Below, one piece after another: positions 12,704 to 56,642 of a stretch of 64,000 bases of DNA. The notes beneath the pieces are model-generated. The model did not search any database. It worked only from the letters and a program-made list of their open reading frames with translations, and was not told the DNA's origin. The position numbers and the translations under genes are program-made. The stretch comes from Escherichia coli (lineage in GTDB: Bacteria; Pseudomonadota; Gammaproteobacteria; Enterobacterales; Enterobacteriaceae). The stretch's first letter is position 1. The number at the start of each line of letters is the position of its first letter. The stretch lies in assembly GCF_016026235.1 (NCBI RefSeq), contig NZ_CP065613.1; one strand, written 5' to 3'.

Positions 12704-12801
12704 GCCTGATGCGCTACGCTTATCAGGCCTACATTTTCTCCGCAATATATTGAATTTGCGCGGTTTGTAGGCCGGATAAGGCGTTCACGCCGCATCCGGC
12801 A
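12704..12801. repeat. BIME: two REP elements (gcctgatgcgctacgcttatcaggcctac and gtaggccggataaggcgttcacgccgcatccggc)
   Basis: Canonical E. coli REP palindromes between convergent uvrB and ybhK. Confidence 0.85.
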
Positions 12802-12857: not shown

Positions 12858-13826
<969 letters not shown>

Positions 13827-13963
13827 TTAACCTGCCAATATTGAGGATACAAACTATTTTCTTCTACCTCTAAAGGACGATGCACGCTATGCCTCCCTGA
13901 TGATGTATATCAAAGTAAAACCGCCATTTTCCCTTATTCTGTAGCGAAATAGCACGATCATGA

Positions 13964-13987
13964 CGCTATATACATGATTACATAGCG
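13964..13987. promoter_or_regulatory. Putative ModE operator (cgctatatacatgattacatagcg) in the moaA promoter
   Basis: Palindromic CGCTATAT...ACATAGCG resembling the ModE site class. Confidence 0.4.
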
Positions 13988-14029
13988 AAAGTGTGGATGG
14001 TAAAAATCTCATTTACACGCTAGTATCGG

Positions 14030-14160
14030 CATAACCACTAAACACTCTAGCCTCTGCACCTGGGTCAACTGATACGGTGCTTTGGCCGTGACAATGCTCG
14101 TAAAGATTGCCACCAGGGCGAAGGAAGAAATGACTTCGCCTCCCGTATCTGGAAAGGTGT
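14030..14160 (+). ncRNA. Moco (molybdenum cofactor) riboswitch region in the moaA 5' leader; boundaries approximate
   Basis: Long structured leader immediately upstream of moaA where the Moco RNA motif is known in E. coli; boundaries not computed. Confidence 0.45.
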
Positions 14161-14162
14161 AC

Positions 14163-15152
14163 ATGGCTTCACAACTGACTGATGCATTTGCGCGTAAGTT
14201 TTACTACTTGCGCCTGTCGATTACCGATGTGTGTAACTTTCGTTGCACCTACTGCCTGCCGGATGGCTACAAACCGAGCGGCGTCACCAATAAAGGCTTT
14301 CTTACCGTCGATGAAATTCGCCGGGTTACGCGCGCCTTCGCCTGTCTGGGCACCGAAAAAGTGCGCCTGACAGGCGGTGAGCCGTCTTTACGCCGCGACT
14401 TTACCGATATCATCGCCGCTTTGCGGGAAAACGACGCTATCCGCCAGATTGCGGTCACCACCAATGGTTACCGTCTGGAACGCGATGTGGCGAACTGGCG
14501 CGATGCGGGACTTACTGGCATTAACGTCAGTGTCGACAGTCTGGACGCCCGCCAGTTTCACGCTATTACCGGGCAGGATAAATTCAACCAGGTCATGGCG
14601 GGGATTGATGCTGCATTTGAGGCCGGTTTTGAGAAGGTCAAAGTCAATACCGTGCTGATGCGTGATGTTAATCATCACCAGCTCGACACCTTTCTGAACT
14701 GGATCCAGCATCGCCCTATCCAGCTGCGTTTCATCGAACTGATGGAAACGGGCGAGGGCAGCGAGCTCTTCCGTAAGCATCACATCTCTGGTCAGGTTCT
14801 GCGTGACGAGCTACTGCGTCGCGGCTGGATCCACCAATTACGTCAACGCAGCGACGGTCCCGCGCAAGTCTTTTGCCATCCAGATTACGCCGGAGAGATT
14901 GGCCTTATCATGCCGTATGAAAAAGACTTCTGCGCCACTTGCAACCGCCTGCGCGTTTCCTCCATTGGTAAACTCCATCTCTGCCTGTTTGGTGAAGGCG
15001 GCGTTAACCTGCGCGATCTGCTGGAAGACGATACCCAGCAACAGGCGCTGGAAGCGCGTATTTCAGCGGCGCTGCGGGAGAAGAAACAGACCCATTTCCT
15101 GCATCAAAACAACACCGGTATTACGCAAAACTTATCGTACATTGGCGGCTAA
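14163..15152 (+). CDS. moaA: GTP 3',8-cyclase (radical SAM), 329 aa
   Basis: ORF 14082..15152 trimmed to [31 protein letters not shown]. Confidence 0.95.
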
Positions 15153-15173
15153 AACGTCAAAAGGAGAGATCAG

Positions 15174-15686
15174 ATGAGTCAGGTAAGCACTGAATTTATC
15201 CCGACCCGTATTGCTATTCTTACGGTTTCTAATCGTCGCGGTGAAGAAGACGATACCTCCGGTCACTATCTGCGCGATTCGGCGCAAGAAGCGGGCCATC
15301 ACGTTGTCGATAAAGCCATTGTGAAAGAAAACCGCTACGCTATTCGCGCTCAGGTATCTGCGTGGATCGCCAGCGACGATGTACAAGTGGTATTGATTAC
15401 GGGTGGTACTGGCCTGACGGAAGGTGATCAGGCTCCCGAAGCATTGCTGCCGTTGTTCGACCGTGAAGTTGAAGGTTTTGGTGAAGTGTTCCGGATGTTG
15501 TCGTTTGAAGAGATTGGCACTTCCACGTTGCAATCTCGTGCGGTAGCGGGCGTCGCCAACAAAACGCTGATTTTCGCCATGCCGGGTTCGACCAAAGCGT
15601 GCCGTACCGCATGGGAAAATATCATCGCGCCGCAGCTGGATGCCCGTACGCGTCCGTGTAATTTCCATCCACATTTGAAGAAATAA
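15174..15686 (+). CDS. moaB: Molybdenum cofactor biosynthesis protein B, 170 aa
   Basis: ORF 15174..15686. Confidence 0.95.
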
Positions 15687-15688
15687 GT

Positions 15689-16174
15689 ATGTCGCAACTG
15701 ACCCATATCAACGCCGCTGGCGAAGCGCACATGGTGGATGTCTCCGCCAAAGCGGAAACCGTGCGTGAAGCGCGGGCGGAAGCCTTTGTCACCATGCGCA
15801 GCGAGACGCTGGCGATGATTATTGATGGTCGCCACCACAAAGGCGACGTATTTGCCACTGCGCGTATTGCCGGTATTCAGGCGGCAAAACGCACCTGGGA
15901 TCTGATCCCGCTCTGTCATCCGCTGATGCTCAGCAAAGTTGAAGTCAATTTACAGGCCGAGCCGGAGCACAATCGGGTGCGTATAGAAACCTTATGCCGC
16001 CTGACCGGGAAAACCGGTGTCGAAATGGAAGCATTAACCGCGGCCTCCGTGGCGGCGCTGACCATTTATGACATGTGCAAAGCGGTGCAAAAAGATATGG
16101 TGATTGGTCCGGTACGTTTGCTGGCGAAGAGCGGCGGCAAGTCGGGTGACTTTAAGGTGGAAGCGGATGATTAA
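15689..16174 (+). CDS. moaC: Cyclic pyranopterin monophosphate synthase, 161 aa
   Basis: ORF 15689..16174. Confidence 0.95.
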
Positions 16175-16412
16175 AGTTCTTTTTTTCGCCCAGGTGCGCG
16201 AGTTGGTGGGAACAGATGCAACCGAAGTGGCTGCGGATTTCCCAACTGTTGAAGCGTTACGCCAGCACATGGCTGCGCAGAGCGATCGCTGGGCGCTGGC
16301 GCTGGAAGATGGCAAATTACTGGCTGCCGTCAACCAGACGCTGGTGAGTTTTGACCATCCGCTGACTGACGGCGACGAAGTAGCTTTCTTCCCGCCGGTA
16401 ACCGGAGGTTAA
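16167..16412 (+). CDS. moaD: Molybdopterin synthase sulfur-carrier subunit, 81 aa, C-terminal GG
   Basis: ORF 16104..16412 trimmed to [12 protein letters not shown]; ends ..VTGG. Confidence 0.9.
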
Positions 16413-16413
16413 G

Positions 16414-16866
16414 ATGGCAGAAACCAAAATTGTTGTTGGTCCGCAGCCGTTCAGCGTAGGAGAAGAGTACCCGTGGCTGGCGGAGCGTGACGAAGACGGT
16501 GCGGTAGTCACCTTTACCGGTAAGGTGCGCAACCATAACCTGGGCGACAGCGTCAAAGCATTAACCCTCGAACACTATCCGGGGATGACTGAAAAAGCAC
16601 TGGCAGAAATTGTCGATGAAGCGCGTAACCGCTGGCCGCTGGGGCGCGTCACGGTGATTCACCGCATCGGGGAATTATGGCCGGGCGATGAAATCGTTTT
16701 TGTCGGTGTCACCAGTGCGCATCGCAGCAGTGCGTTTGAAGCCGGGCAGTTTATTATGGATTATCTCAAAACCCGCGCACCGTTCTGGAAGCGCGAAGCC
16801 ACGCCTGAAGGCGACCGCTGGGTCGAAGCTAGGGAGAGCGATCAGCAGGCGGCAAAACGCTGGTAG
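16414..16866 (+). CDS. moaE: Molybdopterin synthase catalytic subunit, 150 aa
   Basis: ORF 16414..16866. Confidence 0.95.
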   Translation: MAETKIVVGPQPFSVGEEYPWLAERDEDGAVVTFTGKVRNHNLGDSVKALTLEHYPGMTEKALAEIVDEARNRWPLGRVTVIHRIGELWPGDEIVFVGVTSAHRSSAFEAGQFIMDYLKTRAPFWKREATPEGDRWVEARESDQQAAKRW

Positions 16867-29782: not shown

Positions 29783-29880
<98 letters not shown>

Positions 29881-35034: not shown

Positions 35035-35154
35035 GGACGTAGCGTAAACGCCTGATCCGTCCAACGGTTCGGATTTTGTAGGCCTGATAAGACGCGGTAG
35101 CGTCGCATCAGGCATCTGTTGCCGGATGCGGCGTAAACGCCTTATCCGTCCTAC
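35035..35154. repeat. BIME cluster (three REP-like palindromes) between ybiC and ybiJ
   Basis: gtaggcctgataagacgcggtagcgtcgcatcaggc and gccggatgcggcgtaaacgccttatccgtcctac. Confidence 0.8.
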
Positions 35155-56544: not shown

Positions 56545-56642
56545 GCCTGATGCGCTATGCTTATCAGGCCTACGCAGTACCTGCAATATATTGAATCTGC
56601 AGGACTTTGTAGGCCAGATAAGGCGTTAACGCCGCATCAGGC
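56545..56642. repeat. BIME / REP pair downstream of ybiT (preceded by hairpin gtcaccccg atactgt cggggtgac at 56495-56519)
   Basis: gcctgatgcgctatgcttatcaggcctac and gtaggccagataaggcgttaacgccgcatcaggc. Confidence 0.8.

Follow-up and report, generated by a model that had tools for sequence, protein, structure and literature searches.

Genomic context of the moaA control region

The stretch of DNA analysed here (64 kb, referred to below as the window) is part of the Escherichia coli chromosome, and carries, in this order, uvrB, yvcK (ybhK) on the minus strand, moaABCDE and ybhL. The moa genes are located at the following positions, taken from the list of open reading frames (ORFs) and from RefSeq.

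14163-16866, plus strand: moaABCDE, the regulated operon (ORF list and RefSeq annotation of the identical locus)
14163-15152, plus strand: moaA (ORF list, RefSeq)
15174-15686, plus strand: moaB (ORF list, RefSeq)
15689-16174, plus strand: moaC (ORF list, RefSeq)
16167-16412, plus strand: moaD (ORF list, RefSeq)
16414-16866, plus strand: moaE (ORF list, RefSeq)

The intergenic region between yvcK (ybhK) and moaA is 396 bp long (13767-14162). We compared 901 nt of the window with positions 816400-817300 of the K-12 strain MG1655, where a window position equals the K-12 position minus 802881, and found that the intergenic region does not differ at a single position from that of MG1655 (816648-817043). 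Consequently, published experiments performed with K-12 are directly applicable to the sequence studied here. The only four mismatches in the 901 nt compared (positions 14343, 14345, 14375 and 14378) are all located within moaA, and these differences include the codon for the Cys in the sequence “...RAFACLG...” of the window strain. Over positions 13767-14300, many complete E. coli genomes have exactly the same sequence (100% identity), and the moaA control region was found in 5424 of the 5426 complete E. coli genomes. We conclude that this is almost certainly the known region through which moaABCDE, the E. coli operon for the biosynthesis of the molybdenum cofactor (Moco), is controlled in three layers.

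The Moco riboswitch upstream of moaA

A screen of the window with cmscan against Rfam 15 resulted in a match to the Moco family RF01055 at positions 14031-14175 of the plus strand. The score was 103.6 bits (E-value 1.1e-24), the gathering score of the family being 36 bits, and the match comprises model positions 1-135 of 135 and is not truncated. In RefSeq (PGAP), the feature with exactly these coordinates is named “molybdenum cofactor riboswitch” (3265-3409 of the identical locus, corresponding to 14031-14175 of the window). These results confirm the Moco riboswitch that a first-pass annotation, made from the sequence, had placed in the moaA leader. That annotation had described a structured, GC-rich segment; a structured RNA is indeed present between the palindrome described below and moaA, but the aptamer is not GC-rich, its G+C content being 50.3%, compared to 52.2% for the window and 41% for the promoter part. 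The end of the region, which had been set at 14160, has to be moved 15 nt further, to 14175, which is 13 nt into moaA; these last 15 nt include the 3' strand of helix P1 and the start codon.

The structure line of RF01055 was mapped onto the window, resulting in 41 base pairs distributed over five helices. The riboswitch and the signals for translation that it contains are as follows.

14031-14175, plus strand: Moco riboswitch, aptamer and expression platform (RF01055 match, PGAP feature, covariation)
14033-14047 pairing with 14156-14169, plus strand: helix P1, which holds the Shine-Dalgarno sequence (mapped structure line of RF01055)
14050-14066 pairing with 14071-14086, plus strand: helix P2 (mapped structure line of RF01055)
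14088-14092 pairing with 14109-14113, plus strand: helix P3 (mapped structure line of RF01055)
14116-14126 pairing with 14131-14141, plus strand: helix P4, with a GAAA loop at 14127-14130 (mapped structure line of RF01055)
14142-14143 pairing with 14151-14152, plus strand: helix P5 (mapped structure line of RF01055)
14154-14159, plus strand: Shine-Dalgarno sequence AAGGUG (sequence, pair map)
14163-14165, plus strand: moaA AUG, located in an internal loop of P1 (sequence)

GGUGUA (14156-14161), the inner 3' strand of P1, forms the core of the Shine-Dalgarno sequence AAGGUG. The riboswitch thus lies in the 5' UTR of Moco biosynthesis genes, adjoining and overlapping the start of moaA and with the Shine-Dalgarno sequence inside P1. 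Helix P3 is present, and the element is therefore of the Moco type, as opposed to the proposed Tuco type that lacks P3. The loop closing P4 is a tetraloop of the GNRA type. In this family, the receptor of the tetraloop is expected in the bulge of P2, and at the corresponding positions the sequence of E. coli is CCUGGG...UACGG, compared to CCUAAG...UAUGG in the family consensus, which we take to be the canonical 11-nt tetraloop receptor; other enterics have CCUAAG. The element is the same as the K-12 moaA Moco riboswitch (RF01055) described by Regulski et al. 2008 (PMC2408646): the regulatory sequences are identical, the same helices P1-P5 are present, including P3, the ribosome binding site (RBS) is located in P1, and the covariance model matches over its full length.

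Folding of the single sequence 14032-14180 by minimum free energy recovered P3 and P4, and did not recover the consensus P1 and P2; its stability was not unusual (z = -1.54). Such folding of one sequence is uninformative here, being less telling than the covariance model and the covariation analysis.

The window contains other matches above the Rfam gathering scores. These are naRNA4/CssrE (RF02564; 78.4 bits, 35081-35151, minus strand), a nucleoid-associated RNA derived from REP sequences, and ES036/CssrF (RF02751; 41.6-43.4 bits), which is present in three copies, at 12725-12766, 29803-29845 and 56566-56608 (minus strand). The matches to both families look like repetitive extragenic elements.

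Covariation and distribution of the Moco motif

We analyzed covariation in an alignment of 12 gammaproteobacterial homologues, from Escherichia, Citrobacter, Pseudocitrobacter, Kluyvera, Budvicia, Vibrio, Shewanella and Marinimicrobium. As controls, the 3' partners were slid by 1-3 columns, and the alignment was shuffled 500 times. In the 12 homologues, standard pairs were present in 80.6% of the cells, compared to 32-45% when the partners were slid, and compensatory double changes were detected at 22 of the 41 pairs, compared to 7-12 for the slid controls. None of the 500 shuffles reached the observed values for pairing and covariation. The P3 helix was 91.5% paired, with four of its five pairs covarying, and the outer part of P1 was weakly supported (51.7% paired). 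Covariation thus supports the RF01055 fold of the moaA leader. Counting was restricted to this gammaproteobacterial set of 12 sequences because the MAFFT alignment of a more diverse set misaligns P2 and P3.

We then scanned for the pattern CGCCTCCCGNNNNTGGAAAGG, which contains 17 specified bases from the P4/P5 core. This very general pattern was present in at least 120 genomes or loci belonging to many phyla, which are mostly distant (only nine Enterobacterales were among the matches listed), and about 10 of the 71 matches sampled lacked the aptamer core and were hence chance matches. The scan illustrates that the Moco motif is widespread.

The start of moaA

Mechanical ORF calling resulted in an ORF from 14082 to 15152 that starts with TTG and encodes 356 amino acids (aa). 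RefSeq MoaA starts at the ATG at 14163 and is 329 aa long. The difference corresponds to the following feature.

14082-14162, plus strand: spurious 27-codon N-terminal extension of moaA, located within the riboswitch (mechanical ORF calling, TTG at 14082)

The first-pass annotation had regarded these 27 codons over the leader as artificial, and the RefSeq start bears this out. Three mechanically called ORFs of 40-51 aa on the minus strand (13887-14012, 14009-14164 and 14065-14187) were rejected as genes; they are unannotated in RefSeq genomes.

Control of moaA translation

The 131-nt leader, which has exactly the sequence present in the window, was reported to confer more than 3-fold Moco-dependent repression, and analysis of the P3 mutants M1 and M2 showed that disruption of the helix causes derepression and that compensation restores repression (PMC2408646). 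The same study noted that the RBS is located within the nucleotides forming P1, and concluded that control is translational. In addition, CsrA was reported to bind two sites in the aptamer and to activate translation (PMC7652899); the GGA motifs at 14123-14125 and 14151-14153 are candidates for these sites.

The riboswitch might instead act mainly by premature Rho-dependent termination, that is, by attenuation rather than by occlusion of the RBS. Two published results are in favour of this. Term-seq revealed a strong and abundant 3' end at K-12 position 817052, which corresponds to window position 14171, 8 nt into moaA and directly downstream of the P1 3' strand, and expression of a moaA fusion increased more than 2-fold in the rhoR66S mutant (PMC7815308), suggesting a secondary Rho component in the control of moaA. 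However, the Rho score of this 3' end was low (1.24) and it was flagged “No” (PMC7815308), the plus strand lacks an intrinsic terminator-like hairpin downstream of the aptamer, both the Shine-Dalgarno sequence and the AUG are inside P1, and Regulski et al. concluded in favour of translational control (PMC2408646). Moreover, Rho-dependent termination is most simply explained as a consequence of the mRNA being untranslated. We therefore consider attenuation as the main mechanism unlikely. The 3' end at 14171 implies that a riboswitch fragment about 139 nt in length is stable.

Another possibility is that Moco status is sensed by a protein or another trans-acting factor, and that the leader is not controlled by direct binding of a ligand. 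The instability of the cofactor made a test of direct Moco binding impractical (PMC2408646), a 2024 paper states that the exact effector metabolite has not yet been identified (PMC10845959), and a protein, CsrA, does bind the aptamer (PMC7652899). On the other hand, the element is a structured RNA of 135 positions that covaries and occurs in many phyla (at least 120 genomes being matched by the 17-base core pattern), its GNRA loop and multi-stem junction are typical of metabolite aptamers, and no such protein had been identified as of Regulski et al. 2008 (PMC2408646). These features make sensing by a trans-acting factor very improbable.

Promoters S1 and S2 and a putative FNR box

The sections of PMC2408646 that deal with the start sites, which cite Anderson et al. 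2000, describe two of them for the moa operon, named S1 and S2. According to these sections, S1 (+1) is activated by molybdate-ModE and is located 131 nt ahead of the moaA AUG, and S2 is FNR-dependent and located at -87 relative to S1 (legend to Fig. 2). The primer used to construct the S1-leader reporter begins at ACCACTAAAC (PMC2408646), and the primer used by Adams et al. 2021 to clone the 5' UTR begins at AACCACTAAAC (PMC7815308). Based on the published distance of 131 nt and the starts of these two primers we placed S1 at 14032-14033, and hence S2, being at -87, at about 13945-13946. The published start sites correspond to leaders of about 131 nt (S1) and 218 nt (S2). The first-pass leader of more than 300 nt is thus too long; the 396 bp are the intergenic distance.

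A scan of the region 13700-14300 with the sigma-70 consensus did not reveal a promoter-like site. This was to be expected because both promoters are weak and activator-dependent, but the scan does not lend them positive support. Consequently, the -10 hexamers were assigned on the basis of their conservation and of the start sites known from the literature. The features upstream of the riboswitch are as follows.

13900-13913, no strand assigned: FNR-type box ATGATgtatATCAA (9 of 10 matches to TTGAT-N4-ATCAA; pattern search)
13935-13940, plus strand: -10-like hexamer TATTCT, with the putative S2 start at about 13945-13946 (hexamer invariant in seven enterobacterial sequences)
13964-13987, no strand assigned: predicted ModE operator, a 24-bp palindrome CGCTATATA-catgat-TACATAGCG (consensus match, position weight matrix, conservation)
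14021-14026, plus strand: -10-like hexamer TAGTAT, with the S1 start at 14032-14033 (hexamer conserved)

TATTCT and TAGTAT are the putative -10 elements of S2 and S1, respectively. The FNR-type box, which is situated in the same regulatory region and was absent from the first-pass annotation, is conserved in Escherichia, Citrobacter, Pseudocitrobacter and Kluyvera, and has the sequence TTGATGTAAGTCAA in Budvicia. Sequences with 9 of 10 matches to TTGAT-N4-ATCAA are not rare, since the window contains five of them compared to 2.4 expected. The centre of the box would be about 39-41 bp upstream of S2; this distance is uncertain by 1-2 bp because S2 was placed from a secondary citation. In type and predicted distance the box may resemble those of class II FNR-activated promoters, where the dyad precedes the start by about 41.5 bp; it differs from their consensus in having one degenerate half-site (ATGAT).

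The ModE palindrome

The palindrome CGCTATATACATGATTACATAGCG at 13964-13987 consists of two arms (13964-13972 and 13979-13987) that are complementary at eight of nine positions and separated by a gap of 6 nt, and it is the sole inverted repeat in the intergenic region at the settings used. It contains an exact match to TATAT-N7-TAYAT (13967-13983), the only one in the 64 kb, compared to 0.07 expected. We constructed a symmetrised matrix from the 24-bp dyads located upstream of K-12 modA, dmsA and napF, which we take to be footprinted ModE sites; the moaA site was excluded. When the window was scanned with this matrix, the moaA palindrome ranked first with 24.7 bits, which is level with the scores of the training sites on their own matrix (24.6-26.2 bits). 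The next match in the window scored 16.5 bits, and the highest score obtained with 100 shuffled windows was 19.5 bits. The ModE-like palindrome that had been noticed ahead of moaA in the first-pass annotation is thus upheld by both its uniqueness and its matrix score.

The second-best match to the matrix, CGCTATGTATGCGTCACCATAATG (52079-52102, 16.5 bits), maps between mntS and mntR, some 34 nt ahead of the latter. We rejected it as a real ModE site; its score is lower than the shuffle maximum of 19.5 bits, and it is probably a chance match.

The arms of the moaA palindrome, CG[C/T]TAT...ATAGCG, are kept in Escherichia, Citrobacter, Pseudocitrobacter and Kluyvera, and the 6-nt spacer varies freely. 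In the right arm, Citrobacter sp. Cu233 and C. youngae have CAGCG, and the palindrome of Budvicia is a partial match. Taken over five enterobacterial genera, conservation was seen for the arms of the palindrome, for the FNR-type box and for both -10-like hexamers, and the sequences flanking these elements diverge.

The ModE operators of K-12 modABC, dmsABC and napF have the same 24-bp form, CGnTATATA-N6-TAyATAnCG, as the moaA site. At modA, ModE presumably represses by overlapping the promoter, unlike the situation at moaA. The moaA site is located upstream of the S1 core promoter (at about -57), and ModE activates (PMC2408646). With S1 at 14032-14033, the palindrome would span -69/-68 to -46/-45, and its dyad centre would be at about -57. 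Binding of molybdate-ModE and molybdate-dependent regulation at moaA are attributed to Anderson et al. 2000 in the part of PMC2408646 that cites that work, and the exact limits of the ModE footprint are predicted here from this secondary citation and from sequence analysis. In the first-pass annotation, the palindrome was counted as belonging to the leader. This is correct for the longer S2 transcript, which contains it, but for S1 it is promoter DNA; it is transcribed only from S2.

It is scarcely credible that the palindrome, instead of being a ModE operator, acts as a hairpin in the S2 RNA or is an AT-rich inverted repeat that arose by chance. In the S2 transcript it is foldable (-4.5 kcal/mol in E. 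coli, and -7.4 to -9.8 kcal/mol in Citrobacter sp. FP75, Pseudocitrobacter and Kluyvera). However, it scores like the modA, dmsA and napF sites, and the species differ by exchanges of allowed half-site variants (ATATA, ATGTA, GTATA) that do not preserve the pairing, an A-C mismatch being present both in E. coli and in Citrobacter Cu233. Outer arms that are conserved around a freely varying 6-nt spacer are the pattern of a site for a dimeric protein, and the dependence of S1 on ModE has been published (PMC2408646).

Possible RNA hairpins in the moa leader

The palindrome might, besides being the ModE operator, have a second role as a hairpin in the FNR-driven S2 RNA, such that the S1 and S2 mRNAs are regulated differently; we regard this as very doubtful. 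If true, the hairpin in the S2 RNA would end 45 nt before the aptamer (14032), and the stability or folding path of these transcripts would be unlike that of the S1 transcripts.

All the non-Escherichia enterics sampled (three Citrobacter, and one each of Pseudocitrobacter, Kluyvera and Budvicia) contain an extra 18-32 nt just after S1 (window position 14039/14040), within the internal loop of the P1 5' strand. The extra segment folds as a hairpin (-5.7 to -12.1 kcal/mol), whose sequence varies by genus and is flanked by the conserved sequences TCGGCATAAC and AAACACTCTAGCC. E. coli and E. albertii are without it. The segment may be a 5'-stabilising hairpin that was lost in Escherichia, and its absence could alter the stability of the leader in this genus.

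Discussion

The control region of moaA studied here is real and already known, its riboswitch is annotated in RefSeq, and it adds nothing new to biology. The first-pass reading of a ModE site and a Moco riboswitch upstream of moaA is supported, because Rfam, the ModE matrix, RefSeq and the K-12 literature (PMC2408646) agree at this site; its details need the corrections given above. Nothing in this analysis contradicted either assignment.

Combining our results with the published genetics, we propose that two weak, activator-dependent promoters, S1 and S2, drive moaABCDE. Under anaerobiosis, FNR at 13900-13913 would drive the distal promoter S2 (start at about 13945), and a molybdate-ModE dimer on the palindrome at 13964-13987 would activate the proximal promoter S1 (start at about 14032). 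The Moco riboswitch (14031-14175) is part of the transcripts of both S1 and S2. With Moco, or a close product of the pathway, in abundance, the aptamer would fold, and P1 would then pair 14041-14047 with 14156-14161, such that GGUG of the Shine-Dalgarno sequence is buried and the AUG is situated in the adjoining internal loop. Burial of the Shine-Dalgarno sequence would block translation of moaA, and the element would thus function as an OFF switch. Binding of CsrA to its two sites would open the aptamer and activate translation. Lower translation would probably also leave the mRNA exposed to Rho.

The practical value of the analysis lies in annotation: the 356-aa ORF is an artefact, MoaA starts at 14163, the riboswitch is bounded by 14031 and 14175, and the ModE and putative FNR sites have been placed. 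As for the biology of E. coli, the moaA region is a textbook case of layered control, in which transcription is under the control of FNR and ModE, and translation under that of the Moco riboswitch and CsrA.
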